This document shows, piece by piece, positions 11,382-34,753 of a stretch of DNA of 64,000 nt. Under the pieces are notes generated by a model that saw only the letters and a list, made by a program, of their open reading frames with translations, was not told where the DNA came from and did no database searches. Origin of the DNA: Thermoanaerobaculia bacterium (lineage in GTDB: Bacteria > Acidobacteriota > Thermoanaerobaculia > Multivoradales > SZUA-115); the NCBI GenBank assembly GCA_044869805.1, contig JBIOXV010000207.1, positions 8,062-72,061 on the forward strand. The letters are read 5' to 3'. A program made the translations under genes and the position numbers. How positions within the stretch are numbered: the first letter of the stretch is position 1; every line of letters starts with the position of its first letter.

Positions 11382-13925
11382 ATGATGAGAAGAAGCCACC
11401 TCCAGCTCCTGACCCTTTGTAGCGTGTGCGTCCTGGCTCTGGTCGCGCTGGCGCCGCTCCCCACCATTTCGGCCCACGCCAAGGAAAAGGACGCGGACCG
11501 CATCAAGGCGCTGCCGGCCAAGTACCAGGCGTGGCTCGAGGAGGTGGACGTGCTGATCTCGAAGGAGGAGAAGGCGGCCTTCCTCGAGCTCAAGGAGGAC
11601 TACCACCGCGACGCCTTCATCGCGCGCTTCTGGAAGGCCCGCGACCCGTTCCTGGACACCGCCCGCAACGAGTTCCGCGACCGTTTCGAGCAGACGGTGG
11701 CGCTCGCCCGCACCACGTTCGGCGACCTCAAGGAGGAGCGGGCGCGCATGATGCTCCTGAACGGCGAGCCGGGCGAGGTGCGCAAGGTGCAGTGCCCGAC
11801 CGTGCTGTGGCCGACCGAGATCTGGGCCTACGCCGGCAGCGACCGCGTGAGCTACCAGTTCTTCCTCGTCTTCTACCGCAAGTGGGGTGCCGGAAGGTAC
11901 ACGCTGTGGCGGCCGATCGAGGGCCTCCAGGAGCTGTTCCAGGAGCCGATGGGCGCTGGCGGCACGGGCGGCGGAAACCTGCTGGCCCAGATCCGCGACC
12001 GCTGCTACCGCGGCGACGAGGTGGCGGCCATCCTCGGCTCGATGATCGCCCAGGGCGCCCTCGGTTACGAGACCACCCTCGCCGAGGCGACGGAGAAGCC
12101 TCCTCCGCCCGAGGGCGAATGGGTGTCCACTTTCGAGGCCTACTCGACCGATCTGCCGGCGGGCGCGGCCTCGCTGCCCGCCACGCTCGAGGTTCTCTAC
12201 CCGGGCCGGCGGCAGAACCGCACCGCGGTCGAGGGCGTGATCACCGTGCCGCTGGCCGACGCGGGGCAGGCCGCGCTCGCCGACTACCGCTCTTACAACT
12301 TCGTGCTCACCGGCGAAGTCCTGGCGGGCACCGAGCTCTTCGACTCCTTCCGCTACAAGTTCGACCTGCCGGTCGGCGAGGCCGCCGGCGCGTCGTACCC
12401 CCTGGTCTTCCAGCGCTACCTGCGGCCCGGCTCCTACCGCCTGGTGGTGAAGCTCGAGGACCTGAACGGCAAGAAGTTCTTCCGCTCCGATCGGGCGCTC
12501 GAGGTGCCGGAGGTCGGCGAGGCGCCGCCACCTGCGCCCGACCCCGACACGGCGCGCATCCTGGCCGAGGCCAACGCGGTGCTGGCCACCGGCGAGACCA
12601 CGCTCGCGATCGTCGAGCCCCAGGGCGAGCTGCTCTCCGGCATGCGGCGCATCGACACGCTGGTGACCGGCAGCGGCATCGCCCGCGTGACATTCCGTCT
12701 CGACGGCCGCGAGGTGCTGACCAAGAAGGTGCCGCCCTACTCGGTGGAGCTCGACCTGGGCTCGCTGCCGCGGCCGCGCACCCTCGAGGCCTCGGCCTAC
12801 GACGCCTCCGGCCACGAGCTGGCCTCGGACCGCGCGTTGATCAACGCCACGCCACACCGCTTCGCCGTCCGCCTGACCGAGCCGCGGCGCGGCGCCACCT
12901 ACAAGGGCAGCCTGGTGGCCCGCGCCGAGGTCGAGGTGCCGGAGGGCCGCTCGATCGAGCGCGTCGAGTTCTTCTTGAACGAGACCCGCGTCGCCACCCT
13001 CTACCAGCAGCCCTTCGAGCAGCCGATCGTGCTGCCGGACAACGAGCCGCTGGCCTACGTGCAGGCCGTGGCGTATCTGCCGGACGGCAACTCCACCCAG
13101 GACCTGGTGTTCGTCAACGCGCCCGACCTGCTGGAGGAGATCGACATCCAGTTCGTGGAGCTCTACACCACGGCCCTCGACCGCGACGGACGGCCGAGCT
13201 TGGGCCTCGAGGAGGGCAGCTTCCGGGTCTTCGAAGACGGCGCGCCGCAGGAGATCCGGCGCTTCGAGGTGGTGCGCGATCTCCCCATCCACGCCACCGT
13301 GCTGCTCGACGTCTCTGGCTCGATGGAGGACAGCCTGGACCAGACGCGCGAGGCGGCGCTCGGCTTTTTCCAGCAGATCCTCGAGCCCAAGGACCGCGCC
13401 GCGCTGGTTACCTTCAACGACCGGCCGACGCTCGAGGTCAAGTTCACCAACGAGGTCACCGCCTTGGCTGGCGGCCTCGCGGGCTTGAAGGCGGAGCGCG
13501 GCACCGGGCTCTACGACAGCCTGATCTTCAGCCTCTACTACTTCAACGGCATCAAGGGCCAGCGCGCGCTGCTGGTGCTCTCCGACGGCAAGGACGAGTC
13601 CAGCCGCTTCAAGTACGAGGACGCGCTGGAGTACGCCCGCCGCGCCGGGGTGACGATCTACTCGATCGGCCTGTCGCTGCCCAAGGGCGAGGCGCGCCGC
13701 GAGCTGGCGCATTTCGCGGACCAGACCGGAGGCCGCGCCTACTTCCTCGACTCCGCGGCCGAGCTGCCGGCAATCTATGCCGCGATCGAGGAGGAGCTGC
13801 GCTCGCAGTACCTGATCGCCTACCAGTCGACCAACACCTCGAAGGAGGCCACGTTCCGCAGCGTGGAGGTGAAGATCGAGAAGGCTGGGTTCGAAGCGAA
13901 GACCATTCGTGGTTATTACCCGTGA
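11382..13925 (+). CDS. secreted GWxTD-like N-domain / C-terminal VWA-domain protein, paralog 1 (Acidobacterial VWFA-related family)
   Basis: Signal peptide, N-terminal FWxxRDPxxxTxRNE and GEP..WPxEIWxY motifs, C-terminal VWA domain with MIDAS DxSGS (LLDVSGSM), and a terminal GYYP. Start is at the ATG preceded by GAGAGGA. Confidence 0.7.
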   Translation: MMRRSHLQLLTLCSVCVLALVALAPLPTISAHAKEKDADRIKALPAKYQAWLEEVDVLISKEEKAAFLELKEDYHRDAFIARFWKARDPFLDTARNEFRDRFEQTVALARTTFGDLKEERARMMLLNGEPGEVRKVQCPTVLWPTEIWAYAGSDRVSYQFFLVFYRKWGAGRYTLWRPIEGLQELFQEPMGAGGTGGGNLLAQIRDRCYRGDEVAAILGSMIAQGALGYETTLAEATEKPPPPEGEWVSTFEAYSTDLPAGAASLPATLEVLYPGRRQNRTAVEGVITVPLADAGQAALADYRSYNFVLTGEVLAGTELFDSFRYKFDLPVGEAAGASYPLVFQRYLRPGSYRLVVKLEDLNGKKFFRSDRALEVPEVGEAPPPAPDPDTARILAEANAVLATGETTLAIVEPQGELLSGMRRIDTLVTGSGIARVTFRLDGREVLTKKVPPYSVELDLGSLPRPRTLEASAYDASGHELASDRALINATPHRFAVRLTEPRRGATYKGSLVARAEVEVPEGRSIERVEFFLNETRVATLYQQPFEQPIVLPDNEPLAYVQAVAYLPDGNSTQDLVFVNAPDLLEEIDIQFVELYTTALDRDGRPSLGLEEGSFRVFEDGAPQEIRRFEVVRDLPIHATVLLDVSGSMEDSLDQTREAALGFFQQILEPKDRAALVTFNDRPTLEVKFTNEVTALAGGLAGLKAERGTGLYDSLIFSLYYFNGIKGQRALLVLSDGKDESSRFKYEDALEYARRAGVTIYSIGLSLPKGEARRELAHFADQTGGRAYFLDSAAELPAIYAAIEEELRSQYLIAYQSTNTSKEATFRSVEVKIEKAGFEAKTIRGYYP

Positions 13926-14060
13926 CGGAGCTTCTGCGTGTGCCATCTGCTGGGTCGCGGGTCGCCCCGCCGATCCTCTCGTGCTCCAATGTACGCTCCG
14001 GTCGCCGGGGCGTCCCGCTCCTTGCGCGTGGCTCGCTCGCGACGAGCCGTCCCGTTTGGC
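13926..14060 (+). repeat. copy A of a roughly 140-bp conserved intergenic element (three copies in the window)
   Basis: Shares a core with copies at 26306-26444 and 34754-34899: CTGC.GCG.G.CCA.CTGC.GCGTCGCGGGTC..CCCG...ATCCTC...TGTACGCTCCGGTCGCCGGG.C.TCCCGCTCCTTGC..C....CCGCTCGCGACG. Lies directly after the stop of paralog 1. Confidence 0.6.
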
Positions 14061-16714
14061 GAATTCCGATTCCCATCGCATTCCTTCTGCTCCTGGCGCC
14101 TCTCTCTCCCGCCTCCGCCCAGCCCGTTCTGCGCGAGCCGGCGACGCTCGAGGCGCCGGCGCCGCCCAGCGCCCTGCTGCGGCCGCCGCGCGGCGGGCCG
14201 GAGCTCGAGGCGCTCGCCGAGCCCTACCGGCGCTTCCTCGAGGACGTCGATGTGCTGATCACCGACGCCGAGCGCGCCGCGTTCCTCGCCTTGACCGAGG
14301 ACTACCGCCGAGACGCCTTCATCCGTGAATTCTGGAAGCTCCGCGACGCGGACCCGCGGACGGCGCGCAACGAGCGCCGGGAGGATCACGAGAAGCGCCT
14401 GGCGGAGGCGAAGCGGCTGTTCGGCGTCGCCTCCGACACGCGGTCGCGTGCGATGTTGGTCTTCGGTGTGCCGGACGAGCGCTTCGAGGTCGCCTGCGGC
14501 GGGGTGCTGTGGCCGACCGAGGCGTGGTTCTACCTCGCGCCGCAAGGCTCCTCCGAGGCCCAGCTCGCCTCCGCCAGCTCGGCCGAGCCCCTCGCCTTCC
14601 TCTTCTACCGCCGCTGGGGAGCCGGCCACTGGCAGGTGTGGGACGGCGAGGGCGGTGCGCGGGCCTTCTATCGCGACGACAGCGCCGGCGGCTCCACGGT
14701 GGGCTGCAACTACGAGCAGTTCCAACTCGCCCTGCAGCTCATCGGCAAGCGCGGCCTCGGCTACGTGGTGCTGCTCGCCCAGATCGAGCACCCGCCGAAG
14801 CCCAAGAGCAGCGAGTGGGTCGATACTTTCGCCTCCTACTCGACCGACTTGCCGGCCGGGACGGCGAGCTTCTCGGCGGAGCTCTCGCTCCGCTTCCCCG
14901 GCCGGCACGGCCGGCGGACGGTGGTCGAGGGCGTGCTCACCGTGCCGGTCGACGAGGCCGGGAGGGCGGAGCTCGGCGGGCACGCCTCCTACAACTTCGT
15001 CGTCAACGGCGAAATCCTCGCCGCCGGCGAGGCGGGGCAGGGCGCGCAGCTCTTCGAACGCTTCCGCTACCGCTTCGACGTGCCGGCGGGATCGGTCGAA
15101 GGCGGCGAGATCCCGCTCGTCTTCCAGCGCCACCTGCGGCCCGGGCGCGAGGTGACGCTGCTCGTGCGGCTGGAAGACCTGGCCGCGGGGCGCTTCTTCC
15201 GCGCCGCGCGCCGGCTGATCGTCCCCGAAGTCGACGCCATCGCGCCGCGAGCGCCTTCCGACCCGGAGACGGCCAGGCTCCTGGCGGCCGCGGACGCCGC
15301 CCTGGCCGCCGGCGAGACTACGATCGAGATCGTGCGCCCGATGGGTGCGCTCGCCGCCGGCCTCACCCGGTTCGAGAGCCTGGTGGTGGGCGAGGGGGTG
15401 GAGAAGGTCGCCTTTGCGCTCGACGGCGCCACGGTCTTCACCAAGTCCGGGCCGCCGTACTCGGTGGAGCTCGACCTCGGCCCCTATCCCGAGCCGTGGA
15501 CGCTGCGGGCGACCGCCCTCTCGGCCGCCGGCGAGGAGCTGGCGAGCGACGAGCTGCTGCTCAACGCCGGGGGCCAGCGTTTCGCCGTGCGGCTGACCGA
15601 CCCGGTGCCGGGCCGTCGCTACGACGGCGGGGTGCTCGCCCGCGCCGCCGTGGAGGTGCCCGACGGCGAGCGCCTCGACCGCCTGGAGCTGTACGTCAAC
15701 GAGGGCCTCGCCGCCACTCTCTACGGGCCGCCGCCGGAGGGCTCTTCCTTCGCGCAGCCCCTCGCGCTGCCGCCGGCCGGCGAGCCGGCCTACGTGCGCG
15801 CCGTGGCCCATCTGGCTGGCGACGGCGGGGCGGGAGACGGCGGCTCGGCGGAAGACCTGGTGTGGGTGAACGCCCCGCCCGGCTTCGGGGATTCACTCGA
15901 CGTGAACCTGGTGGAGGTCTATGCCAGCGTGGTCGATCGCCAGCGCCGGCCGGTGGCCGGCCTCGGGGAGCCCGACTTTCAGGTGCGCGAGGACGGCGCT
16001 CCCGTCCGCCTAGACCGCTTCGAGGCGGTGGCCGACCTGCCCATCCACGCTCTCGGCGTGCTCGACGTCTCGGCTTCGATGGCGGAGCTGCTGCCCGCGG
16101 CGCGGCAGGCGGCGCTCGGTTTCTTCGCGCAGCTCTCCAACCCGCGCGATCGCATGGCGCTGGTCACCTTCAACGATCGGCCGCAGCTCGCCGCGCGGTT
16201 CACCCGCGACCTCGCGCAGATCGGCGGCGCGCTCGCCGGCCTCAAGGCGGAGCGCGGCACGGCGCTCTACGACAGCCTGATCTTCGGCCTGTTCTACGCC
16301 GCCGGCTCCTCGCGCGGCAGCCTCCCCGGCCAGCGCGCCCTCGTCGTGCTCACCGACGGCGAGGACGACGGCAGCCGCTACTGCTTCGAGGACGCCCTCG
16401 ACTACGCGCGCCGCTCGGGGGTGACGATCTATGCCATCGGCCTGGGGTTGGCCGAGCCCGACGGGGCGGGCCGGCGCCTCGCCCGCCTGGCTGCCGAAAC
16501 CGGGGGCCGCGCCTTCTTCCCCGGCGCCGCCGCCGAGCTCACGCCGGTCTACGACGCCATCCTCGTCGAGCTGCGCAGCCGCTACCTCCTCGCCTACCAG
16601 CCGCTCCACGCCGAGCGCGACGGCCCCCAACGCGACGGCCCATATCGGAGGGTCGAGGTCGACGTCGACTGCCGCGGCTGCGAGGTGAAGGCCATCCAGG
16701 GTTACTACCCCTGA
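13937..16714 (+). CDS. secreted GWxTD-like/VWA protein, paralog 2 (start uncertain)
   Basis: Same architecture as paralog 1, with MIDAS VLDVSASM and C-terminal QGYYP. The only canonical in-frame starts are GTG at 13919 or 13937, which would make the repeat element part of the n-region. The signal peptide core IPIPIAFLLLLAPLSPASA begins near 14063. Confidence 0.6.
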   Translation, partial: RVPSAGSRVAPPILSCSNVRSGRRGVPLLARGSLATSRPVWRIPIPIAFLLLLAPLSPASAQPVLREPATLEAPAPPSALLRPPRGGPELEALAEPYRRFLEDVDVLITDAERAAFLALTEDYRRDAFIREFWKLRDADPRTARNERREDHEKRLAEAKRLFGVASDTRSRAMLVFGVPDERFEVACGGVLWPTEAWFYLAPQGSSEAQLASASSAEPLAFLFYRRWGAGHWQVWDGEGGARAFYRDDSAGGSTVGCNYEQFQLALQLIGKRGLGYVVLLAQIEHPPKPKSSEWVDTFASYSTDLPAGTASFSAELSLRFPGRHGRRTVVEGVLTVPVDEAGRAELGGHASYNFVVNGEILAAGEAGQGAQLFERFRYRFDVPAGSVEGGEIPLVFQRHLRPGREVTLLVRLEDLAAGRFFRAARRLIVPEVDAIAPRAPSDPETARLLAAADAALAAGETTIEIVRPMGALAAGLTRFESLVVGEGVEKVAFALDGATVFTKSGPPYSVELDLGPYPEPWTLRATALSAAGEELASDELLLNAGGQRFAVRLTDPVPGRRYDGGVLARAAVEVPDGERLDRLELYVNEGLAATLYGPPPEGSSFAQPLALPPAGEPAYVRAVAHLAGDGGAGDGGSAEDLVWVNAPPGFGDSLDVNLVEVYASVVDRQRRPVAGLGEPDFQVREDGAPVRLDRFEAVADLPIHALGVLDVSASMAELLPAARQAALGFFAQLSNPRDRMALVTFNDRPQLAARFTRDLAQIGGALAGLKAERGTALYDSLIFGLFYAAGSSRGSLPGQRALVVLTDGEDDGSRYCFEDALDYARRSGVTIYAIGLGLAEPDGAGRRLARLAAETGGRAFFPGAAAELTPVYDAILVELRSRYLLAYQPLHAERDGPQRDGPYRRVEVDVDCRGCEVKAIQGYYP

Positions 16715-16735
16715 CGTAGAGTCCTCGAGGCACAG

Positions 16736-19273
16736 ATGAACCGAGATCGACTGCTCGTCCTGCTCGCCGCCTCGCTCTTCACGGCCACGTTCCTCGCCGC
16801 CCGCGTCCCTGCGGCGCAGGACCCCGAGAACCGGGTGGAGGCGGCGCAGGCGCAGGCCGCCACCGCGGAGAGCCTGCTGCCTCCTCAGTACCGGCAGTGG
16901 CTGGAAGAGGTCACGGTGCTGATCACCGACGAGGAGCGCCAGGCCTTCCTCGCCCTGCAGAAGGACTACCAGCGCGACGCCTTCATCGACCGCTTCTGGC
17001 GCGAGCGCGACCCTTACCCGGACACCGGCAGGAACGAGCTGCGTGAGCGCTGGGGCGAGCGGGTGAAGGTGGCGCGCGCTGGATTCCGCCGCCTCGACGA
17101 CGCGCGCGCCAAGGTGCTGCTCTTGAACGGCGAGCCCGAGGTGCGGCGCGGCATCCGCTGCCGCGCCGCGTTCTGGCCGCTCGAGCTGTGGTTCTACCCC
17201 GGCGGCAGCGACCTCTTCCGCTCGCGCTTCGTGGTGGTCTTCTACCAGCCGGGAGGCGCCGGGCCGTACCGCATCTGGCACCAGAGCTTCGGGCGCCAGG
17301 AGCTGGTGAGCTTCGACACCGGCGCGAGCTGCCTGCCCGAGGACGTGGAGCTGATTCGCATCGCCCTGCGCTGGATCGACGAGGAGGGCGAGATCGGCTA
17401 CATGACCGTGCTCGAGCGGGTGTCCTCGCCGCCCAACCTGGGCGGCCGCGAGTGGGTGGCGACCTTCAACTCCTACTCCACGGACCTGCCGGCCGAGGCC
17501 GCCACCTTCCCCGCCGAGGTGGCGCTCGACTTCCCCGGCTTCCACCAGAACCGCACCGTGGTGCAGGGCGCGGTGCTGGTCTCGGCGGAGGCGGTCAAGG
17601 CCGCCGAGCTGGGCGGCGAGCGCAGCTACAACTTCGTGCTCACCGGCGAGGTGCTGCAGGGGCCGACGCTCTTCGACTCTTTCCGCTACAAGTTCGACCT
17701 GCCGGCCTCGGTCACCGCCGCGGACGGACGGATGCCGCTCGTCTTCCAGCGCTACCTGCGCCCCGGCGGGCCCTACACCCTGGTGCTCAAGCTTGAGGAC
17801 CTGGCGGCGCAGCGCTTCTTCCGCTACGAGCGGCCCTTCGAGGTGCCGCGGGTGACCGAGCCCGAGCTGGCGCCGCCGCTCGACCCGCGCCTGGCCGAGG
17901 TGCTGGCCGAGGCCAACGCCGCGCTCGCCGCCGGCGAGACCACGGTCAAGCTGGTGCCGCCGATCGGCGAGCTGCTGACCGGCCTGGTGCGCTTCGACAC
18001 GGTGGTCACCGGCGGCGACGTGCAGCAGGTGCGGTTCGAGCTCGACGGCGAGGCGATCCTCACCAAGACCCGGCCGCCGTTCTCGGTCGAGCTCGACCTC
18101 GGCGATTTCCCCCGCCCCCACACGCTGCGCGCCACGGCCTCCGCCGAGAGCGGCGAGGAGCTCGCGAGCCACGAGCTGCTGGTCAACCTGCCGGGAAGCC
18201 GCTTCCGCGTGCGGCTCACCGAGCCTCACCGCGGCGGGAAGTACGAGCGGAGCCTGCGCGCCCGCGCCGAGGTCGAGGTGCCCCAGGGCGAAGCCTGCGA
18301 ACGGGTGGAGATCTACTTGAACGACACCCGCGTGGCGACCCTCTATCAGCCGCCCTACGTACAGCCGATCGTGCTGCCGGAGGAGGCGCAGTCGCTCTTC
18401 GTGCGCGCCGTGGCCTACCGCACCGACGGCGGCTCTTCCGAGGACGTGGTGTTCATCAACACCCCCGGCTACGGCGAGGACATCGCCATCCAGCTCGTGG
18501 AGCTCTACACCTCGGTGCTCGACCGCCAGGGGCGACCGGTGCCGGGCCTGGCGCAGGCCGATTTTCGCGTCGAGGAGGACGGCGTCGAGCAGGAGATCTC
18601 GCGCTTCGAGCAGGTGCGCGACCTGCCCTTCCACGCCGCCATCCTGCTCGACACTTCGGCGTCGATGACCGAACGCATCGAGGCGGCGCGCGCCGCGGCG
18701 CTGCAGTTCTTCGAGCACTCGATCCGGCCCCGTGACCGCGCGGCGCTCATCGCCTTCAACGACCGGCCCTACCTGACCGTGCCCTTCACCAGCGACCCCA
18801 GGGTCTTCGGCCCGGGGCTCGCGGGCCTCAAGGCCGAGCGCGGCACGGCGCTCCACGACAGCCTGATCTACTCGCTCTTCTATTTCACCGGCGTCACCGG
18901 GCAGCGGGCGCTGATCCTGATCTCGGACGGCAAGGACGAGTCGAGCCGCTTCGAGTTCGAGCAGGCCCTGGAGTACGCCCGCCGCGCCGGCATCACCCTC
19001 TACACCATCTCGCTCGGCCTGGAGAAGAAGGAGGGGGCCGCGAGGAAGGCCCTGACCCGCCTCGCCGACGAGACCGGAGGCCGCAGCTTCTTCCTCGACT
19101 CGATCGCCGAGCTACCCGCCGTCTACGCGACGATCGAGGACGAGCTGCGCTCCCAGTACCTCCTCGCCTACCAGTCGAAGAACACTGCGCGCGACCGCGC
19201 CTTCCGCTCGATCGACCTCGAGGTCGACCGCCGGGGCGTGGAGGTGAAGACGCTGCGAGGGTACTACCCGTGA
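16736..19273 (+). CDS. secreted GWxTD-like/VWA protein, paralog 3
   Basis: Signal peptide, FWRERDPYPDTGRNE motif, MIDAS LLDTSASM, terminal RGYYP. Confidence 0.7.
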   Translation: MNRDRLLVLLAASLFTATFLAARVPAAQDPENRVEAAQAQAATAESLLPPQYRQWLEEVTVLITDEERQAFLALQKDYQRDAFIDRFWRERDPYPDTGRNELRERWGERVKVARAGFRRLDDARAKVLLLNGEPEVRRGIRCRAAFWPLELWFYPGGSDLFRSRFVVVFYQPGGAGPYRIWHQSFGRQELVSFDTGASCLPEDVELIRIALRWIDEEGEIGYMTVLERVSSPPNLGGREWVATFNSYSTDLPAEAATFPAEVALDFPGFHQNRTVVQGAVLVSAEAVKAAELGGERSYNFVLTGEVLQGPTLFDSFRYKFDLPASVTAADGRMPLVFQRYLRPGGPYTLVLKLEDLAAQRFFRYERPFEVPRVTEPELAPPLDPRLAEVLAEANAALAAGETTVKLVPPIGELLTGLVRFDTVVTGGDVQQVRFELDGEAILTKTRPPFSVELDLGDFPRPHTLRATASAESGEELASHELLVNLPGSRFRVRLTEPHRGGKYERSLRARAEVEVPQGEACERVEIYLNDTRVATLYQPPYVQPIVLPEEAQSLFVRAVAYRTDGGSSEDVVFINTPGYGEDIAIQLVELYTSVLDRQGRPVPGLAQADFRVEEDGVEQEISRFEQVRDLPFHAAILLDTSASMTERIEAARAAALQFFEHSIRPRDRAALIAFNDRPYLTVPFTSDPRVFGPGLAGLKAERGTALHDSLIYSLFYFTGVTGQRALILISDGKDESSRFEFEQALEYARRAGITLYTISLGLEKKEGAARKALTRLADETGGRSFFLDSIAELPAVYATIEDELRSQYLLAYQSKNTARDRAFRSIDLEVDRRGVEVKTLRGYYP

Positions 19274-25624: not shown

Positions 25625-26305
25625 ATGCGCCTCCCGACTCGCACCGTAGCCCTCGCCGCCTTCCTTTCTCTGGCCGGTGCCGGAGTCTTCGCCGTGGGGG
25701 CCTTCGCCGCGGAGACCGGGGTCTTCGAGCTGGGGTCACTCAACAAGCGGTACGACCACCTGACCTCCGACCTGGCGCCGATCGAGACCGGCGGCATCAA
25801 GGTCCAGCTCTCCTCACCGCAGCACGAGCTCTCCCTGTTGTCGAACCGCTTGGTGCTGCGGCCCCTCGGCCCCGGCAGTTACGACCTCGCCCTGCAGATC
25901 GAGTTCGGCGGCAGCGGCTCGCTGATCGCCGACCTCGACGTCTCGGGCGCCGCCTCCAGGCTCACGGACGAGCTCGTGGTGCCGGCCCAGCGGCGCACGG
26001 TGCTCGCCAAGGTGAAGATCGCGCGCTCCCGCTCGGGCTACCTCATCACGCCGCTCGAGCTGCCGAGCGACTTCCAGGTCGAGATCGAGAGCCGCCTGGG
26101 CTCGCAGCTCGTCGCCGCCTGCCGGCCGCTCGGCCTGCTGATGCCGCTCAACTGCGACGACCTCGAGCGCGCGCTGACGCTGGTCTCGATCCCCATGCCG
26201 GCGCCGGGCGAGACCTACCTGTTCGAGAGCGAGCGCCTGGCGGAGAGCGAGCGCCGCGACCTGGACGCCTATCTGAAGCGCACCGGCGCTACGTTCCTCG
26301 AGTAG
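25625..26305 (+). CDS. secreted hypothetical protein, likely co-transcribed with paralog 4
   Basis: Signal peptide, 46-bp gap after paralog 4, same strand. I recognise no domain. Confidence 0.45.
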   Translation: MRLPTRTVALAAFLSLAGAGVFAVGAFAAETGVFELGSLNKRYDHLTSDLAPIETGGIKVQLSSPQHELSLLSNRLVLRPLGPGSYDLALQIEFGGSGSLIADLDVSGAASRLTDELVVPAQRRTVLAKVKIARSRSGYLITPLELPSDFQVEIESRLGSQLVAACRPLGLLMPLNCDDLERALTLVSIPMPAPGETYLFESERLAESERRDLDAYLKRTGATFLE

Positions 26306-26444: not shown

Positions 26445-26446
26445 GC

Positions 26447-29400
26447 TCAGATCGCGCGGCCAGCTCCCGGGGCCGCCGGCCAGGTCAGGCCCTCCTGCGT
26501 GGCCAGGGCGACGATCTCCTGGTGCTCGCGGACCCGGAAGAGGAAGGTGTGCCGCTCCGTGGGGCTGAGGCCGTCGGCCTTGGCGAGCAGCAGCCGATAG
26601 GCGAGGCGCAGGTGCGGCAGGGCGCCGCGCGGCCGGCTGTCGCGGCGGGCGAGCCAGGCGAGGGCCTGATAGAGGCGTAGCTCGCCGATCTCGCGGCGCT
26701 CCAGGTGCAGGCTCTCCCCGAGGAACGCCCCGAGATCGGCGGCGAGGCGCTCGACCCTGGCCTCGTCCGCGGCCGCCATCGCGAGGTCCAGCCAGGCTGT
26801 GAGGTCGAGCAGGATCGCCTCGCGATCGCCTACCCGTCGGTGCGCCGCCACCGCCTCGGCAAACGCCGAGGCGGCCTCGCTCCATTGGCGCTTGGCGAGC
26901 AGCACCTCGCCGATCAGTCGCTGGGCGTCGCCAAGGGCGGCGTTCAAGGAGCTCTGCAGCCGCAGGTCGAACTGCGCCCTGCGAGCTTCCTCGAGCGCGC
27001 TGTCGAAGCTCTCGAGGTGGAAGTAGTTCTCGGCCACGGCGAGCCGGGCGATGGCCGCGCCCGAGGCATCCTCGCTCGCTTCGCGCAGCGCCAGCGCCCG
27101 CCGCAAGGGGGCCGAGGCGGTGGCGAAGTCACCCAGGCGGGAGAGGGCCTTGGCGATGCCGAGCAGCGCAAAGCCGACTTCGGCGGGGTCCCCCGCGGCC
27201 GCCAGCACGCTTTCGGCTTCCCGGTAGTGGGCCAGGGCGGCGGGGTAGCGGCCCTCGAGCAACGCGATCCGGCCCAGGGCGGAGAGCGAGCTGCCGACGG
27301 CCTTCGGCTTGTCGAGGTGGCGGCGGATGGCGAGCGCCCGCTCGTGGAGCTCGAGGCCGTCGCGCAGCCGGCGCTGGTGCACGGCGACATTGCCGAGGTG
27401 GAAGAGGCAGCTCGCGGCGAGCGAGGAGGTGTCGGCCGGCCCGAGGTGGGGAAGCACCCGCTCGAGCAGCTCGCCGGCCTCCTGGTGGTGCTCCTGGCGG
27501 ATCAGCAGCCGCGCCAGGTGGAGCACCAGCACGGCGCCGGCCAGCGGCTCGCGGGCGCCGGGCCCCGAGAGCGCCTGGCGAAGGGTCGCCTCGGCATCCG
27601 CCAGGCGCCCTTCCTGCTCCTCGAGCTCGGCGGCGAGGCCCGCCAGGGCCAGCGCCTTCCTGGAGTCGCCCTGGGCCAGGGCGCGGGCGAGAGTCAGCTC
27701 GTCGGCGAGGTCCCGCAAGCGCCCCAGCTTTCTGGCCAGGGGCAGGAGGTGCCAGAGGATCAGCAGCTCGAGCTGCGGCTGGCCGCTCGGCAGGTCCTTG
27801 GCGCGCTTCCGCAAGGCGTCGAGCTCAGCGGCGAGGGCCTGGAAGAGCGCTTCGGGCGGCGCCCCTCCCTCCGCCACCGCCTCGAGCAGCGCCGTGAGCC
27901 CCAGCGGCGAGGTGGCGAGCAGCGCGTAGCGCGGCCAGGCAGCCTGCGGCACCGCCGGCAGCGTCTTCCCCAACGTCAACCGGAGGCGGGCGGCCTCCGC
28001 GCCGGGAAGGGTGGCGCGCAGCGCCGCGGCCAGGGCCGGGCAGGCGAGCACCAGGCCGGGGCCCCAGGCCGACGGGGCCGCCTCGGCCCAGCCCTCCTTC
28101 ACCCACGCTCCTGCCCAGCCGGCCGCGAGCGCCTCGCCCCCGGCCGCGGCCAGGGCCTGCGGCGGCACCGGCAGGCCGGCGACGGCCAGCAGGCGGGAGG
28201 CGAGCGGCCCGCCCAGGCGGCGGGCCTCGGCTTCCGCGTGCTGCACCAGCCGCTCGGAGGGAAGGTAGGTCGTCGCTTCGCTGCCACCGAAGAAGAAGCT
28301 GCCGAGCACCTGGCGAATCAGGCCGGCCTGGACCATCGCCGTCAAGCCCTCCTCCAGTGCGAACGGGTTGCCGTGCGCCACCTCCAGCAGGGTGGTCTGC
28401 ACGGCGGCGGGAAGCGACAGGCTGGCGCCGAGCCGCGAGAGCGTAGCCGCGAGGTCGGCGGCAGGCAGCGGCTCGACGCGCGCCCCCAGCGCGGAGGAGC
28501 GCCTGAGGCCAGCCGGCAGCGAGCGGCCGGCCGCGACCAGGCGGAAGCCGCCCTTCGCGGTGGCCGTCTCGGCCAACCATGCGAGGAAGGCGAGATCCTC
28601 CGCGGTCGCCCCTTCGAGGCCGTCCACCACCACGACCGGCGGCCGGCCCGCCGCCCGGCCCAGCTCGGCGAGGAGGCCGGGCAGGGCGGGCCCGACCCGC
28701 TGGTCGTCGACGCCGAGGTCCGCCAGCCCTTGAAAGGCCGCGCCCGCCGCGGTGCCGGCGGCCAGCATGCGGAGGAGGAGCTGGGTGGTGAGCGTCGGCC
28801 CCGCCTGCCGTGCCGGCCTCGGACTCGTCCACAGCACGGGAGCGCCGGCGCCCGCCAGAGCCTCCCAGACCGCACGCGTCTTGCCGCAGCCTGCCGGGCC
28901 GGTCACCACCACCCGCGGTGCCGGGGAGGCCAGCACCTTGTCGAGCTCCGGCCGGGGCACGTAGGCCGAGCGGCGCTTGAGCGGGCGGGGGTTCCGGTAG
29001 GGTGGCGCTTCGGTGTCCTCGCCGAGGGCCTGGACCAAGGGCACCCGCAGGCCACCGAGCCCCTGGAAGGTCCCGGCCGGCCGCAGCTTGCGGCGCACCT
29101 CCAGGCGGGCCGCGGCGTGCGTGGTGAGGAAGACCTTGCCCGCTTCGAGGGCCGGCGCCCGCCGCTCCGTCTCCTCGAGCAGGGGGTTGGCCACTACCGC
29201 GGCGGCGGGGAGCTCGATCTGCCCGGGCAAGAGCAGGAAGCGCAGGCCGCCGCCCCGCGGGCCGGGGCCACCGCCGGCGGCGGCGGTGGCGGAAAGCAGC
29301 TCGGCGGCCACCACCAGGGCGGCATCGAAGACCGCCGGGTCGCCGGCCTCCGGCACCACGGCGCAGAGGTTGGGCCGTGGCCAGAGCACCCCGGGGCGCT

Positions 29401-29524
29401 CGCGCACCGCGCCGCGTGCCGCCGCCAGGGTCTCGGCCCGGCCGTGCTCCTCCCACACCCGGAGCAAGGCGGCGGGCACGATGAGGCGGGGCTCAGGGGC
29501 GCGGTCCTGGTCCATGGTCGCCAC
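26447..29524 (-). CDS. STAND-type P-loop NTPase with C-terminal TPR-like repeats
   Basis: Walker A (VVTGPAGCGKTR), a long alpha-helical TPR-like C-terminal region, about 190 aa of uncharacterised N-domain, and no HTH found. Confidence 0.55.
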   Translation of the reverse strand: MATMDQDRAPEPRLIVPAALLRVWEEHGRAETLAAARGAVRERPGVLWPRPNLCAVVPEAGDPAVFDAALVVAAELLSATAAAGGGPGPRGGGLRFLLLPGQIELPAAAVVANPLLEETERRAPALEAGKVFLTTHAAARLEVRRKLRPAGTFQGLGGLRVPLVQALGEDTEAPPYRNPRPLKRRSAYVPRPELDKVLASPAPRVVVTGPAGCGKTRAVWEALAGAGAPVLWTSPRPARQAGPTLTTQLLLRMLAAGTAAGAAFQGLADLGVDDQRVGPALPGLLAELGRAAGRPPVVVVDGLEGATAEDLAFLAWLAETATAKGGFRLVAAGRSLPAGLRRSSALGARVEPLPAADLAATLSRLGASLSLPAAVQTTLLEVAHGNPFALEEGLTAMVQAGLIRQVLGSFFFGGSEATTYLPSERLVQHAEAEARRLGGPLASRLLAVAGLPVPPQALAAAGGEALAAGWAGAWVKEGWAEAAPSAWGPGLVLACPALAAALRATLPGAEAARLRLTLGKTLPAVPQAAWPRYALLATSPLGLTALLEAVAEGGAPPEALFQALAAELDALRKRAKDLPSGQPQLELLILWHLLPLARKLGRLRDLADELTLARALAQGDSRKALALAGLAAELEEQEGRLADAEATLRQALSGPGAREPLAGAVLVLHLARLLIRQEHHQEAGELLERVLPHLGPADTSSLAASCLFHLGNVAVHQRRLRDGLELHERALAIRRHLDKPKAVGSSLSALGRIALLEGRYPAALAHYREAESVLAAAGDPAEVGFALLGIAKALSRLGDFATASAPLRRALALREASEDASGAAIARLAVAENYFHLESFDSALEEARRAQFDLRLQSSLNAALGDAQRLIGEVLLAKRQWSEAASAFAEAVAAHRRVGDREAILLDLTAWLDLAMAAADEARVERLAADLGAFLGESLHLERREIGELRLYQALAWLARRDSRPRGALPHLRLAYRLLLAKADGLSPTERHTFLFRVREHQEIVALATQEGLTWPAAPGAGRAI

Positions 29525-29676: not shown

Positions 29677-30267
29677 GTGAATCTGCTTGCGGCAATTCGC
29701 GTCGGAGGAAAACTGAGCATGCGCTCCCGCCGTCTAATGAATCGGCTCTATTATTTCACAATTGAAGACGAAAGCATCCTCGCCGAGGCGTTCGGCAAGC
29801 TCGAGGATGACGTCTACGCCATCACCTACAAGGTCACCGGCACCGACGACGTCTTCGTCACCACCCGCGAGACCAAAGACGCGATGGATCGCAACGACGT
29901 CTCCTACAACCTCCTGGCGGAGGAGGACGCGTCGCGCATCTCCATCTATCACTCGCCGCTGTCGCGCGAGGAGCTGTCCGACTACGAGGACGCGATCCGC
30001 GCCCTCGCCCTCGCCCACCGCGCCATCGCGCTCGCCTGCGTCGGCGTCAACGGCGAAACCAACCTTGGCTTCGACCTTTCTGAAGGTCCGAAGCAGTACA
30101 CGTATTTCTCGGCTCCGGGCGGCCACACCTTCATCTGGCGCCTGTTCTTCGAGCGCGAGGACGCGCAGAGCTTCCTCGAGCGCTGGACGTTCGGCGAGAA
30201 GCGCGCCCTGGAGTGGGCCGCTTCGATCCCGCTCGTCTCGGCGAGCGAGCTGCGGTCGTATCATTGA
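29677..30267 (+). CDS. hypothetical protein (start uncertain; alternative ATGs at 29719 and 29740)
   Basis: ORF in a locally lower-GC patch. Its stop overlaps the xseA start. I recognise no domain. Confidence 0.4.
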   Translation: MNLLAAIRVGGKLSMRSRRLMNRLYYFTIEDESILAEAFGKLEDDVYAITYKVTGTDDVFVTTRETKDAMDRNDVSYNLLAEEDASRISIYHSPLSREELSDYEDAIRALALAHRAIALACVGVNGETNLGFDLSEGPKQYTYFSAPGGHTFIWRLFFEREDAQSFLERWTFGEKRALEWAASIPLVSASELRSYH

Positions 30268-31673
30268 CGTACCCGGCGGCCGATACCACTCACTCCGTCT
30301 CCGAGCTCTGCGACGGCATCCACGCCCTCCTCGCGGAGGCCTTCCCGTCGTTGTGGGTGGCGGGGGAGGTGCAGCGGGTCCGGCGTAGCCAGCGCGGCCA
30401 CCTCTACTTCGAGCTCGTCGAGAAGGGCGCCGGCGACGAGGTCGCGGCCAAGCTCGACGCCGTGATCTGGCGCACCGACCTCGAGCGCATCAGCCGCCTG
30501 CTCGCCGCCTCGGGGCAGTCGATCGCCGAAGGGGTGGATCTGCGCTGCCGGGCCGGGGTGGACTTCTACCCGCCCGGCGGCCGGCTGCAACTCGTGGTGC
30601 GCGAGGTCGACCCGCTGGCCACCCTCGGCCTGCTCGAGCGCCGCCGCCAGCAGACGCTCGCCGAGCTGGCCGCGGCCGGCCTCCTCGACAAGAACCGCGG
30701 CCTGGCCCTGCCCGATCTCCCGCTCGAGGTGGCGCTCGTCACTTCGCACGGCAGCGCCGCCTACCACGACTTCCTCTCTACCCTGCGCGAGAGCGGCTAC
30801 GGCTTCCGGGTGCTCTTCGTACACGCCTCGGTGCAGGGCAAGAACGCGGAGCGCGAGATTGCCTCGGCCCTCGCGGCGCTGGCCGGGTCCGGCGCGCGCC
30901 TGGCCTGTGCCGTGCTGGTGCGCGGCGGCGGCTCGCGCTCCGACCTCGCCGTATTCGACAGCCGCGAGGTCGCCCTCGCCGTGGCCGGCGCGCCCTTCCC
31001 CGTAGTCACCGGGCTCGGCCACGAGATCGACCAGGCGATCGCCGACCGCGTGGCCCACACCGCGGTGAAGACCCCCACCAAGGCCGCCGAGCTGCTGGTG
31101 GAGATGGTGGCACGCGCCGAGCAGGGGCTCGCCGCGCTCGCCGGCGGGCTCAAGTCCGCTGCCCTGCTGCCGCTCGACCGCGGGCGGCACCGCCTGGCGC
31201 TTGCCGAGCACGGGGTGACGCGCGCCCGGCACCGCTTGGCGCTCGCGGGCTCGCGCCTGGCCGAGCTGCACCGTTCGCTCGGCCGCGCCGGCCTCGTTCT
31301 ACTGCGCACCGCCGCCCACCGCCGCCGGGCTCTGGCCGAGCGGCTGCGCGACGCCTCGCCGCGCCTACTCGATCGCCGGGACGGAGAGCCGCGGCTTGCC
31401 GCGGCACGGCTCGCGTCCGCGTCGCGCGGCCAGCTCCGCGCGGCCTCGCGCGTCCTCTCCGGGCTCGAGCGCCTGTGCCTGGAGCTCGGCCCCGGCCGTA
31501 CGCTGCGCCGCGGGTTCACCATCACCCGCACGGCGGGCGGCGCGCTGATCCGCTCCCCGGCGGCGCTCGAGGCGGGCGAGCGCATCGTCACCGAGACGGC
31601 CGGCGGCACCCTGGCGAGCCGCGTCGAGAGCGCCCTCGCCCAGGCCGCCGGCGTGGAGGCCCGTGCCGTATGA
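30264..31673 (+). CDS. xseA: exodeoxyribonuclease VII large subunit
   Basis: OB-fold N-terminus and an ExoVII_L catalytic and coiled-coil region. The probable TTG start overlaps the upstream stop (ATTGA). xseB overlaps its stop. Confidence 0.8.
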   Translation: MTYPAADTTHSVSELCDGIHALLAEAFPSLWVAGEVQRVRRSQRGHLYFELVEKGAGDEVAAKLDAVIWRTDLERISRLLAASGQSIAEGVDLRCRAGVDFYPPGGRLQLVVREVDPLATLGLLERRRQQTLAELAAAGLLDKNRGLALPDLPLEVALVTSHGSAAYHDFLSTLRESGYGFRVLFVHASVQGKNAEREIASALAALAGSGARLACAVLVRGGGSRSDLAVFDSREVALAVAGAPFPVVTGLGHEIDQAIADRVAHTAVKTPTKAAELLVEMVARAEQGLAALAGGLKSAALLPLDRGRHRLALAEHGVTRARHRLALAGSRLAELHRSLGRAGLVLLRTAAHRRRALAERLRDASPRLLDRRDGEPRLAAARLASASRGQLRAASRVLSGLERLCLELGPGRTLRRGFTITRTAGGALIRSPAALEAGERIVTETAGGTLASRVESALAQAAGVEARAV

Positions 31674-31930
31674 GCTCCGAAAAGACGAACCAGCCGGCTG
31701 CGAGCGCCGCCTCCGAGGCGCCGGCACCGAGCTTCTCCGAGGCGATGGCCGAGCTGGAGTCGATCCTGGCGCGTATCGAGAGCGAGGAGATCGACGTCGA
31801 CGACCTCGCCCACGAGCTGCGGCGGGCGAGCGAGCTGCTGGAGATCGCGCGCGGCAAGATCCGCAAGGCCGAGGTGGAGGTCACGCAGATCGTGCAGGCG
31901 CTCGACGCCGAAGAGCGCGACAGCGAGTAG
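31670..31930 (+). CDS. xseB: exodeoxyribonuclease VII small subunit
   Basis: 86-aa helical protein (FSEAMAELESILARIESEE..). Its ATG overlaps the xseA stop (ATGA). Confidence 0.85.
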   Translation: MSSEKTNQPAASAASEAPAPSFSEAMAELESILARIESEEIDVDDLAHELRRASELLEIARGKIRKAEVEVTQIVQALDAEERDSE

Positions 31931-32029: not shown

Positions 32030-34753
32030 GTGCGTCTTGCTTCCGTGCGCGGCCCGCTCGCGGGCTGCCTGCTCGCCGCCCTAGCCGTCTCCGCCGTCGA
32101 AACCCCGGCGCCCGAACCGGCGCTCTCCGACCCGCCCGCCAAGTACACTGCCTGGCTCGCCGAGGTGGCGGTCCTGATCTCGGACGCCGAGCGCCAGGCG
32201 TTCCTCGCCCTGGGCAAGGATTTCCAGCGCGAGGAGTTCATCCGCCGTTTCTGGCAGGCGCGCGATCCCTACCCCCAGACGGCGCGCAACGAATTCCGAG
32301 AGGGATGGAACGAGCGGGTGGAAGAGGCGCGCAAGCGCTTCGACGGGCTGGAGGGAGCCCGCGCGCGGATGCTCCTGGCGCTGGGGCCGCCGGAGTCCAC
32401 AGTGCGCGCCTCCTGCAGCGAGCTGCTGCGGCCGCTGGAGATCTGGTGGTACTCCCGGGTGCGCGGCGTGCGCGATTCCTTCGCCCTCGTCTTCGTGGCG
32501 CCCACCGGCGCGCCGGGAGGGCCGTTCGAGCTCTGGCACCCGACCCAGGGCCTGCAATCGCTGCTCTCGCCGTCGAGTCAGGCCTTCTCCGAGCCTGCGC
32601 CGAGGGACCTGCTCGTGCCCGGCGGCGCCGCGCGGGGGCGCGCCAGCTCGCGGGGGAACGACGGCGAGGGAATGGGCGCCTCGGGGTTCGGGTCGGCCCC
32701 TGCTTTGGGAGCTTTGGGGGCGGGAAGCGAGCCCGGCCGGGTCTTCGCGGCCATCGCCGAGCGCTGCAGCCGCGGCGACGACATCCTCTCCGGCCTGGCG
32801 AGCGCCGTCGACCTGGGAGCGGCCGGCGTCGAGCGCGCGCTGCTGCCGCGGCCGAGCGATGAGTGGCTGCGCACCTTCGTGGCCTACTCGACCGACCTGC
32901 CCGCCGGCGCCGCCATCTTCGAGGCCGACCTCGCCGTCGCCTTTCCCGGCCGCCAGCAGAGCCGCACCGTGATCCAGGGCCTGCTCTCCGTGCCAGTGCC
33001 GGAGGGGGTGCCAGTGCCGGAAGGGGTGCCAGTGCCGGAAGGGGAGGGAGGCGCGGCGCGCCAAGGCTACGTGCTCGACGGCGAGGTGCTGCGCGGCGAG
33101 GAGCTGTTCGAGCACTTCCGCTACCGGTTCCAGATGGGCGCCGCGGACCGGGTCGAGGGTCGCTGGCCGCTCCTGTTCCAGCGCCTGCTGCGGCCCGGCG
33201 AGTACACTTTGATCCTCAAGCTCGAAGAGCAGGGCAGCGGCCGCTTCTTCCGCGCCGAGCGGCAGCTCTCGGTGCCGGCCGAGACGGGACCCGCGACGGT
33301 GCCGGCGGGGCCAGCGGCCGCCGCCTCGGAGCTGACGGGTGCCGGCCCGGCAGCCCCCGCGCGCGACCCCCGGGCGCCGGTGCTCGCCGAGGCGAACGCG
33401 GCGCTCGCCGGGAGCGACAGCGCCGTCGAGCTGCTGGCGCCGCCGGCGCGCCTGCTCACCGGGCGCCAGCGCTTCGAGGCCCTGGCGGTGGGCGCTACGG
33501 TCTCGCGGGTGCGCTTCGACCTCGACGGCAAGCCGGTGCTCACCAAGCGCGAGCCGCCGTTCAGCGCCGAGGTGGACCTCGGCCCCGCGCCGCGCATCCA
33601 TCGGCTGCGGGCGGTGGCGCTCGACACCGAGGCGCGCGAGCTCGCGACCGACGAGCTGATCGTCAACGCCGGGCCGCACCGCTTCGCCGTGCGTCTGATC
33701 GAGCCGCGGCCCGGCGAGCGCTACACGGCGAGCGTGCCGGCCGCCGCCGTGGTCGAGGTGCCGGAGGGCGAGGTGCTCGAGCGCCTCGAGCTCTACCGCG
33801 GCGAGGCCCTGGTCGCGACCCTCTTCCAGTCGCCGTTCTCGCAGCCCATCCTGCTCCCCGCCGGCGAGGAGGCGGCCTACGTGCGGGCGGTGGCGCATCT
33901 CGCCGGCGGCGGCTCGGCCGAGGACGCCGTGCTGATCAACAGCCCGCAGTTCGGCGAGAGCGTGAAGGTGCGCTTCGTCGAGCTCTACACCGCGGTCGTC
34001 GATCGCCGCGGGCGGCCGGTCGAGGGCCTGGCGCGCGACGACTTCCGGGTGTTCGAGAACGGTGCCGAGCAGAGCGTGATGCGCTTCGAGAAGGTGCGCG
34101 ACCAGCCCATTCACGCCGGCATCCTGCTCGACACCTCGGCCTCGATGCTCGAGGAGCTCGACGACGCCGAGGCGGGCGCCCTCCAGTTCTTCCGCTCGGT
34201 TCTGACGCCGAGGGACCGCGCCGCGGTGATCACCTTCAATGACGGGCCGCGCCTCGCCGTGCGCTTCACCAGCGACCCCGAGGTCCTGGCCGGCGGCCTT
34301 TCCGGCCTGACCGCCGAGGGCGAGACGGCGCTCTACGACAGCCTGATCTACGCCCTCTACTACTTCAGCGGCCTGTCCGGAAAACGCGCCCTGATCCTGC
34401 TCTCCGACGGCGAGGACTCCTCCAGCCGCTACCGCTTCGAGGAGGTGGTCGAGTACGCCCGCCGCACGGGCGTAGCGATCTACCCGATCGGCATCGATCT
34501 CGCGAGCCGCCAGAACGAGTTCCGCCTGAAGCTCTCGCGCCTGGCGCGGGAGACGGGGGGGCTCGCCTTCTTCACCGAGGGCGCGAGCGGCCTCGGCCGT
34601 GCCTACGACGCGATCGCCGCGGAGCTGCGCTCGCAGTACCTGCTCGCCTACCAGTCGGCGAGCGAGGGGAGAGACGAGGCGTTCCGCGAGATCGAGGTGA
34701 AGATGCGGGAGGCGGGGCTGGATGCGAAGACGATCCTCGGCTACTACCCCTGA
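32030..34753 (+). CDS. secreted GWxTD-like/VWA protein, paralog 5
   Basis: GTG start, signal peptide, FWQARDPYPQTARNE motif, internal VPVPEG x3 tandem repeat, MIDAS LLDTSASM, and a terminal LGYYP. Confidence 0.7.
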   Translation: MRLASVRGPLAGCLLAALAVSAVETPAPEPALSDPPAKYTAWLAEVAVLISDAERQAFLALGKDFQREEFIRRFWQARDPYPQTARNEFREGWNERVEEARKRFDGLEGARARMLLALGPPESTVRASCSELLRPLEIWWYSRVRGVRDSFALVFVAPTGAPGGPFELWHPTQGLQSLLSPSSQAFSEPAPRDLLVPGGAARGRASSRGNDGEGMGASGFGSAPALGALGAGSEPGRVFAAIAERCSRGDDILSGLASAVDLGAAGVERALLPRPSDEWLRTFVAYSTDLPAGAAIFEADLAVAFPGRQQSRTVIQGLLSVPVPEGVPVPEGVPVPEGEGGAARQGYVLDGEVLRGEELFEHFRYRFQMGAADRVEGRWPLLFQRLLRPGEYTLILKLEEQGSGRFFRAERQLSVPAETGPATVPAGPAAAASELTGAGPAAPARDPRAPVLAEANAALAGSDSAVELLAPPARLLTGRQRFEALAVGATVSRVRFDLDGKPVLTKREPPFSAEVDLGPAPRIHRLRAVALDTEARELATDELIVNAGPHRFAVRLIEPRPGERYTASVPAAAVVEVPEGEVLERLELYRGEALVATLFQSPFSQPILLPAGEEAAYVRAVAHLAGGGSAEDAVLINSPQFGESVKVRFVELYTAVVDRRGRPVEGLARDDFRVFENGAEQSVMRFEKVRDQPIHAGILLDTSASMLEELDDAEAGALQFFRSVLTPRDRAAVITFNDGPRLAVRFTSDPEVLAGGLSGLTAEGETALYDSLIYALYYFSGLSGKRALILLSDGEDSSSRYRFEEVVEYARRTGVAIYPIGIDLASRQNEFRLKLSRLARETGGLAFFTEGASGLGRAYDAIAAELRSQYLLAYQSASEGRDEAFREIEVKMREAGLDAKTILGYYP
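32990..33043 (+). repeat. three 18-bp tandem repeats encoding (VPVPEG)x3 inside paralog 5
   Basis: GTGCCAGTGCCGGA(A/G)GGG repeated three times. Confidence 0.7.

Follow-up and report, generated by a model that had tools for sequence, protein, structure and literature searches.

The stretch of DNA studied here, a 64,000-nucleotide (nt) window of contig JBIOXV010000207.1 (positions 8,062 to 72,061, GenBank assembly GCA_044869805.1, Thermoanaerobaculia bacterium), carries five paralogous genes (P1 to P5) whose products combine an N-terminal module of the GWxTD type with a C-terminal von Willebrand factor type A (VWA) domain that contains a metal ion-dependent adhesion site (MIDAS). The initial annotation had described them as one tandem array of five with graded divergence. 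The five paralogs are real, but the array is a composite: comparison with related loci indicates that P1, P2, P3, and P5 derive from an ancient, class-wide, position-conserved cluster of three genes (A-B-C) located between iscS and maf, while P4 is a member of a separate, old subfamily ("D type") with a conserved block of its own. We propose, with a probability of roughly 55%, that the products are non-redundant, cooperating, metal-dependent proteins that function in multivalent binding or assembly in the cell envelope or outside the cell.

Given a G+C content of ∼72%, the list of open reading frames (ORFs) of the window is full of long spurious frames. We called genes from the third-position GC content (GC3) of each reading frame together with the translations, which resulted in five co-oriented plus-strand genes of 845 to 924 amino acids at the positions given in the initial annotation. 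The genes are separated by 14 nt (P1-P2), 21 nt (P2-P3), 3,672 nt (P3-P4), and 6,450 nt (P4-P5), so that the upper but not the lower bound of the 11 to 21 bp reported earlier for the first three holds. tblastn searches of the window with each paralog matched exactly these five genes and none further. Six other large ORFs, at 4937, 41082, 45823, 50303, 56259, and 61579, were considered as additional paralogs and rejected, since none was matched; those scanned for domains (all but the ORFs at 56259 and 61579) turned out to be an SLT transglycosylase, ArgS, an ORF without a Pfam match, and a FAD oxidoreductase. P1, P2, P3, and P5 share 44 to 55% pairwise identity (E = 0), whereas P4 aligns with P1 to P3 at 32 to 34% over the full length and with P5 at 40% in the C-terminal half only (E values of 1e-94 to 1e-122). 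The relatedness of the five is thus far beyond chance. Identity amounts to 25 to 48% in the N-terminal half and 43 to 62% in the VWA module, showing that divergence is concentrated N-terminally. P2 is hidden in the ORF list within an open frame of 1,762 amino acids (11426 to 16714) that has no stop codon across P1; its sole usable start codon near the N terminus is the GTG at 13940, and a long N-terminal extension precedes its hydrophobic segment. We also observed ORFs of 900 to 1,760 amino acids that overlap the paralogs on the opposite strand or out of frame (11226 to 14081, minus; 11426 to 16714, plus; 16010 to 18856, minus; 32081 to 34819, minus). These are artefacts of high G+C content with the wrong GC3 pattern, and they could mislead automated annotation.

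All five proteins exceed the cutoff of 81.25 bits of the NCBIfam hidden Markov model (HMM) TIGR03436 (acidobact_VWFA, "VWFA-related Acidobacterial domain"), with scores of 171.4, 167.9, 195.6, 176.1, and 191.2 bits for P1 to P5 and alignments that run from profile position 4 to 7 up to position 322 of 324. The assignment of the N-terminal domain to the GWxTD family, also made in the initial annotation, is borne out by model TIGR04514 (cutoff, 28 bits) in four cases, namely P1 (48.6 bits), P2 (44.4 bits), P3 (47.2 bits), and P5 (57.6 bits), each over ∼100 amino acids and the whole profile, but not in P4, which reaches 16.6 bits (E = 0.0084, profile positions 9 to 104 of 105). The N-terminal module of P4 is divergent, with FLDHDP replacing FWxxRDP; P4 is homologous to the other paralogs by pairwise alignment but falls outside the family at the curated threshold. 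The FWxxRDP motif itself is found in P1, P3, and P5 and is altered in P2 (FWKLRDADP) as well as in P4 (FLDHDPIP), while of the second motif noted earlier, WPxExWxY, the part PxExWxY is invariant in all five paralogs. The literal GWxTD motif, which we take from the family name to be the defining feature of TIGR04514, is absent from this branch: the regular expression GW.TD matched 0 of the 5 window copies, 0 of 120 long homologs, and 0 of 120 P4-type homologs, as compared with 5 of 150 diverse representatives. The only Pfam matches in the paralogs were VWA, VWA_2, and Big_7, with VWA and VWA_2 above their cutoffs in all five; the first ∼400 residues had no Pfam match even at an E value of ≤10. 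Judged by these profiles, the five proteins appear to be straightforward members of two curated, functionally blank families.

The family is acidobacterial and expanded into paralogs, as the initial annotation had stated, with homologs named as Thermoanaerobaculia, Acidobacteriota, Bryobacteraceae, or Solibacterales. With P3 as the query, we retrieved at least 1,171 proteins of the same length and architecture, all of them from metagenome-assembled genomes (MAGs) of Thermoanaerobaculia or Acidobacteriota. The scored candidates also included at least 5,729 short TIGR03436 relatives. The sampled short members (∼320 amino acids) consist of a signal peptide and the TIGR03436 module alone, with a short tail after GYYA. 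They share with the window proteins the VWA core with its MIDAS, the flanking strands, the terminal R-x-G-Y-Y strand, and the acidobacterial origin, but in the window proteins the module follows ∼580 amino acids of other domains and ends a protein of 850 to 920 amino acids exactly at GYYP. In agreement with the earlier statement that the family is functionally uncharacterized, we found no relevant literature on GWxTD, on TIGR03436, or on VWA proteins in Thermoanaerobaculia or Acidobacteriota; a paper on paralogs in Solibacter merely lists a VWA family, as being too divergent to analyze. Many MAGs annotate the proteins as "VWA domain-containing protein", and many homologs carry the JGI/KEGG-style name "Ca-activated chloride channel homolog". 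Given that only the shared VWA domain supports the latter name, it is an annotation artefact produced by transfer and uninformative on function: the window proteins score 18 to 27 bits against the hCaCC model TIGR00868 (cutoff, 900) and have no CLCA metalloprotease domain.

To describe the domain layout, we built an AlphaFold2 (AF2) model of P3 from 124 sequences (mean predicted local distance difference test score [pLDDT], 88.5; predicted template modeling score [pTM], 0.80), whose segments are listed in Table 1. In the model, the N-terminal module is a folded alpha/beta unit about twice as long as the TIGR04514 profile, and it is followed by a beta-sandwich, two Ig-like domains, and the TIGR03436 module. 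Foldseek searches against the Protein Data Bank (PDB) matched the VWA part to ANTXR2, integrin I domains, and TFIIH p44 (E = 1e-8; target TM scores, 0.74 to 0.80; root mean square deviation, 2.3 to 3.5) and the Ig pair to the Fn3-like modules of CbhA, while no solved structural relative was found for the N-terminal module. The initial annotation had pointed to a MIDAS in every copy, and indeed all five paralogs have D-x-S-(G/A)-S-M and, further downstream, the T and D of the site; the corresponding residues D639, S641, S643, T704, and D731 (P3 numbering) are invariant among the 124 sequences. The fold superposes with that of MIDAS-type VWA and integrin I domains (ANTXR2/CMG2, integrin alpha-M/alpha-X), and all DxSxS/T/D residues are there, but sequence identity is only 13 to 21%, the likeness is limited to fold and motif, and the window proteins are bacterial, with a different domain context. 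In I domains, the MIDAS binds a divalent cation whose coordination is completed by a carboxylate of the ligand. Given this likeness, and since the MIDAS is intact and invariant in every copy, we propose that the window proteins may likewise bind carboxylate ligands in a divalent cation-dependent manner. P5 further has two features that are not found in the other paralogs, a low-complexity insert of 60 amino acids rich in Gly, Ala, and Ser in the N-terminal module (32576 to 32755) and a perfect threefold peptide repeat, (VPVPEG)x3, in the beta-sandwich region (32990 to 33043).

Each paralog has one strongly hydrophobic N-terminal segment followed by an Ala-X-Ala-like site of small residues, as judged by eye and by hydropathy, and no other segment of transmembrane (TM) grade was detected in any of them (the best 19-residue hydropathy outside the N terminus is ≤1.34). 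Together with an invariant Cys pair in the N-terminal module (C142/C199 in the 124 sequences), this makes export plausible. Two special signals were considered and set aside: a lipoprotein reading of "LAGC" in P5 was rejected because the Cys has no preceding hydrophobic stretch, and a Tat signal in P2 ("SGRRGVPLL") is not convincing, the hydrophobic core lying ∼20 residues further on. We picture the products as soluble proteins of modular build that are exported by the Sec route and belong to a family common in Thermoanaerobaculia. From the N terminus, each consists of an alpha/beta module of ∼210 amino acids (GWxTD type without the motif; it contains the Cys pair and clustered polar residues that are invariant), the beta-sandwich, two Big_7 domains as spacers, and the TIGR03436 module, in which extra beta-strands precede and follow a VWA domain whose MIDAS (DxSxS...T...D) is complete, the last strand being R-G-Y-Y-P. 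The paralogs would be co-expressed and would act in the cell envelope or outside as metal ion-dependent binding or assembly proteins, the MIDAS cation being completed by a carboxylate of the ligand, while the faster-diverging N-terminal modules may supply second binding sites specific to each paralog, so that multivalency matters.

The main alternative is that the N-terminal module is an enzyme that the Ig-like and VWA domains only position or anchor, for instance one that attacks an envelope or extracellular polymer as a hydrolase or lyase. Polar residues of this module are invariant in the 124 sequences and in the five paralogs, including P4 (E67, R80, and E101, plus D92, T97, R124, and E150 in P3 numbering), and the want of a solved structural relative leaves room for a new active site. 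Nevertheless, no similarity to catalytic families was seen in Pfam, NCBIfam, or the PDB, and structural salt bridges within a helical bundle could account for the invariant charged residues. A profile built from the five N-terminal modules retrieved 6,147 cluster representatives at an E value of ≤1e-3, and the module is repeated one to three times in relatives: six metagenomic proteins of 1,073 to 1,406 amino acids (P0241, P0242, P0243, P0245, P0248, and P0254) carry two or three of them in tandem ahead of a single C-terminal TIGR03436 module. Such tandem repetition is more typical of binding modules, and we regard a catalytic role as unlikely. Another metagenomic protein, P0244 (602 amino acids), has two N-terminal modules and no VWA domain. 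Having neither Pfam coverage nor a solved relative, the N-terminal ∼400 amino acids would be worth targeting in structural genomics.

Scanning species-representative genomes yielded 74 related loci, nearly all from Thermoanaerobaculia, the closest (L001) at 87% identity, which places the window in this class as well. In most of these loci, two or three family genes follow one another in the same orientation, with a copy number that ranges from one to four. In a neighbor-joining tree of 159 complete genes, the clades correspond to the position of the gene in the row, and for the 22 loci in which the number of complete genes is exactly three, each gene has its nearest relative in another genome at the same position (66 of 66 cases); the median intergenic gap is 87 nt. 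The cluster is framed by conserved neighbors. In 65 of the 74 loci, the first family gene is immediately preceded by a divergently oriented iscS gene, with mnmA behind it, and in 51 maf directly follows the last one. In the window, iscS and maf likewise flank P1 and P5. By mean distance, P5 lies nearest to the clade of the third position (0.67 versus 0.86 to 0.89), and it is the ortholog of the ancestral third gene of the triad. P1 and P3 fall into a superclade of positions 1 and 2, and both have orthologs in L001, L002, L003, and L036, where the P1 orthologs occupy the first position. Orthologs of P2 were found only in L002 and L036. Comparison with L001 gave ratios of nonsynonymous to synonymous substitution rates (dN/dS) of 0.22 to 0.37 for the paralogs and of 0.06 to 0.37 for the neighboring genes compared (0.17 to 0.30 for iscS, mnmA, and rsmI), and all copies are under purifying selection.

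These data also bear on the idea that the copies have no cooperative function but are redundant, having arisen by a recent amplification specific to this lineage; they could then be, for instance, surface adhesins kept variable by diversifying selection. Within the window, P1 and P3 are more similar to each other than to any other paralog (55% identity) and share one superclade, P2 occurs in some relatives and is missing from the closest genome, and the copy number varies among loci, all of which would fit such a history. However, the clades defined by position extend across the class, orthologs of each window paralog occur in other genomes, the selective constraint is similar to that on the neighboring genes compared, and the MIDAS is intact in every copy, so that we hold a recent amplification to be quite improbable. 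Our proposal that the paralogs act jointly and non-redundantly is argued from their conserved order and tight spacing, the faster evolution of their N-terminal modules, the one- to threefold repetition of these modules, and the Ig-like spacers.

P4 stands apart from this history. A search with P4 found at least 120 proteins at 45 to 78% identity, as opposed to ∼33% to the other four window paralogs. The context of the P4-type genes is shared among the window, L001, L003, and three distant loci (L075, L076, and L077), in the following order: an oppositely oriented YhaM-like HD gene, a single P4-type gene or two of them, a gene whose product of ∼226 amino acids is predicted to be secreted, a conserved gene of ∼190 codons, and xseA-xseB. 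Homologs of the 226-amino-acid protein come after the P4-type gene in all five of these loci, with 37% identity in the three distant ones (L075, 8460 to 9152; L076, 8532 to 9245; L077, 11304 to 11948), and in L075 and L076 the start of this gene overlaps the stop of the P4-type gene by 4 nt. The protein has no Pfam or NCBIfam match, and its position makes it a candidate partner of the P4 subfamily. In the lineage of the window, the P4 block was placed inside the triad, between P3 and P5.

The C-terminal ending deserves separate consideration, given that the initial annotation reported GYYP in all five copies and suggested a sorting or anchoring signal. Four copies do end in this way, while P4 ends in GYYR. 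The ending is conserved well beyond the window: it occurs in 120 of the 120 best homologs and in 153 of 165 complete family genes of the related loci, and 45 of 56 more diverse long representatives end in GY-hydrophobic-P. Such near invariance in the long subfamily would suit a signal recognized by a dedicated enzyme, and genes for rhomboid-family proteases are indeed found near the P4-type block in L076 (13169 to 14053) and L077 (11945 to 12526); they are not found in the window, L075, L001, or L003. This adjacency, the only case of a protease near any family member, is probably coincidental, and no protease or sortase gene was a conserved neighbor in the 74 loci. A free terminus is not required either, since 119 of 120 short TIGR03436 proteins (Bryobacteraceae, Solibacterales) continue for 2 to 10 residues after R-(K/R)-G-Y-Y-A, and in L066 the motif is followed by GGF. 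No hydrophobic helix with a basic tail comes after GYY, the proteins ending one residue later, and no NCBIfam model for LPXTG, PEP-CTERM, GlyGly-CTERM, the T9SS CTD, sortase, exosortase, or rhombosortase-type sequences matched at an E value of <0.01. The motif rather coincides with the last positions of the TIGR03436 profile, up to 322 of 324, and the P3 model shows it as a strand (mean pLDDT of 84 for the final block, residues 841 to 845). Since it is family-wide, nonterminal in the short members, and confidently modeled as a strand, with no conserved processing enzyme nearby, we conclude from profile and model that GYYP forms the closing strand of the TIGR03436 fold and is not a cleavable sorting signal; a role in sorting, anchoring, or processing is very unlikely.

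A last possibility, to which we give hardly any weight, is that the proteins resemble BatA/BatB or MoxR-associated VWA proteins working with an AAA+ ATPase, with the product of the AAA_16-TPR gene that adjoins the P4 block in the window, L001, L003, and L075 as the partner, given that their matches to the BatA model NF047508 (23 to 41 bits) are far below its cutoff of 380, they have no membrane anchors, no MoxR or DUF58 gene and no bat/moxR operon context was found in the window, and the AAA_16-TPR gene is of the STAND type, is encoded in the opposite direction, is missing from the L076 and L077 blocks, and is never next to the triad. In its favor, besides the weak BatA matches and the adjacency of the AAA_16-TPR gene, the solved structure nearest in sequence to the VWA core is 4rck from Vibrio fischeri (E = 6e-7 with a single sequence and 1e-10 with the family profile), which was deposited as a "hypothetical membrane spanning protein" and which we ourselves, rather than any tool, take to be BatA-like.

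Several points weigh against our proposal of cooperating, metal-dependent binding or assembly proteins. The conserved neighbors iscS, mnmA, and maf are housekeeping genes that provide no functional clue, and no experimental or literature information was found for any family member. Co-transcription is read solely from gene spacing and orientation; a scan over 11 to 20 kb returned no promoters and five terminator-like sites (2.6 expected), all of them inside genes. The signal peptides were assigned only from hydropathy and by eye, a catalytic site could account equally well for the invariant polar residues of the N-terminal module, and hetero-oligomerization is conjecture. A bolder version, which we consider doubtful, would have the A-B-C triad and, separately, the P4-type protein with its 226-amino-acid partner form heteromeric, MIDAS-dependent envelope or extracellular complexes specific to Thermoanaerobaculia, in which the N-terminal modules represent a fold without a solved relative and with a new binding or catalytic site, and in which the terminal GYYP carboxylate might be the MIDAS ligand that links the subunits.

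Thermoanaerobaculia are widespread, mostly uncultured bacteria of soil and sediment, and they devote a conserved three-gene cluster of ∼7.5 kb and a fourth subfamily to large proteins that are predicted to be exported. The new findings are descriptive and comprise an ordered triad between iscS and maf that is found across the class, a P4 subfamily of its own accompanied by a small, putatively secreted partner, a branch that lacks the GWxTD motif, and the interpretation of GYYP as a structural element. For a specialist, these results are useful rather than surprising and do not overturn current understanding; they direct attention to complexes and ligand binding rather than to a secretion signal.

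The segment of ∼12.6 kb between P3 and P5 contains further genes (Table 1), of which those from the HD gene to xseAB form the syntenic block conserved elsewhere. Two genes for divalent-cation transporters, a CorA Mg2+ channel and an Nramp/MntH protein, are located directly after P3, a suggestive position beside MIDAS proteins. A functional link to the paralogs was rejected, given that none of the 74 related loci has CorA and only 1 has Nramp, so that the adjacency is lineage-specific. The 196-amino-acid protein has no Pfam or NCBIfam match; it is 95% identical in L001 and 61 to 75% identical in distant genomes, and its dN/dS of 0.06 is the lowest in the region. Its gene is always located just upstream of xseA, whose start it overlaps in the window. 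The xseB gene (86 amino acids) overlaps the xseA stop codon and falls below the length filter of the ORF list; its inclusion cuts the apparent gap of 357 nt before P5 to 99 nt.

Table 1. Features of the window, with positions counted from its first nucleotide (aa, amino acids)
Feature	Position	Strand	Description
P1	11382-13925	+	847 aa; signal peptide, GWxTD-type N-terminal module, beta-sandwich, two Big_7 Ig-like domains, TIGR03436 VWA module; MIDAS DVSGSM 13308-13325; GYYP 13911-13922
P2	13940-16714	+	924 aa; architecture as P1; MIDAS DVSASM 16064-16081; GYYP 16700-16711
P3	16736-19273	+	845 aa; copy used for the structure model; MIDAS DTSASM 18650-18667; GYYP 19259-19270
P3 signal	16736-16816	+	
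P3 N-terminal module	16865-17485 (aa 44-250)	+	helix-rich alpha/beta module, aa ∼30-250 (AF2)
P3 beta-sandwich	17501-17851	+	aa 256-372, followed by a helix (AF2)
P3 Ig-like 1	17942-18184	+	aa 403-483 (AF2)
P3 Ig-like 2	18206-18457	+	aa 491-574, four strands next (AF2)
P3 TIGR03436 module	18488-19270	+	aa 585-845
P3 Rossmann-like VWA			aa 632-813, then three closing strands, the last being G842-Y843 (AF2)
P4	22946-25579	+	877 aa; D type subfamily; same overall architecture; MIDAS DTSGSM 24956-24973; ends in GYYR
P5	32030-34753	+	907 aa; MIDAS DTSASM 34130-34147; GYYP 34739-34750
IscS/NifS-type cysteine desulfurase	10004-11206	-	Pfam Aminotran_5, E = 7e-71; divergent, upstream anchor of the triad, adjoins P1
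Maf	34828-35520	+	Pfam Maf, E = 5e-59; downstream anchor of the triad, directly after P5
Segment between P3 and P5	19328-31930		∼12.6 kb
CorA	19328-∼20230	-	
Nramp	20366-21673	+	
YhaM-like HD protein	21705-22907	-	
226-aa protein	25625-26305	+	predicted signal peptide; follows P4
AAA_16-TPR protein	26447-29524	-	
196-aa conserved protein	29677-30267	+	
XseA	30213-31673	+	
XseB	31670-31930	+	
AbiEii-like fragment	43635-44174	+	
N6/N4 DNA methylase	44563-45813	+	
802-aa ORF	45823-48231	-	no Pfam match
DndB/DGQHR protein	48185-49330	-	E = 1.5e-104

Two observations concern the remainder of the window. ARAGORN called a 96-nt tRNA-Gly(CCC) at 6460 to 6555 on the minus strand, inside the plus-strand ORF of the SLT transglycosylase (4937 to 7264); since no Rfam family reached its gathering threshold anywhere in the window, this call is probably a false positive. 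Next to argS, a stretch from 43635 to 49330 has a G+C content of 0.62 to 0.63, compared with ∼0.72 for the window, and with its AbiEii-like, DNA methylase, and DndB/DGQHR genes it looks like a horizontally acquired defense or DNA modification island.

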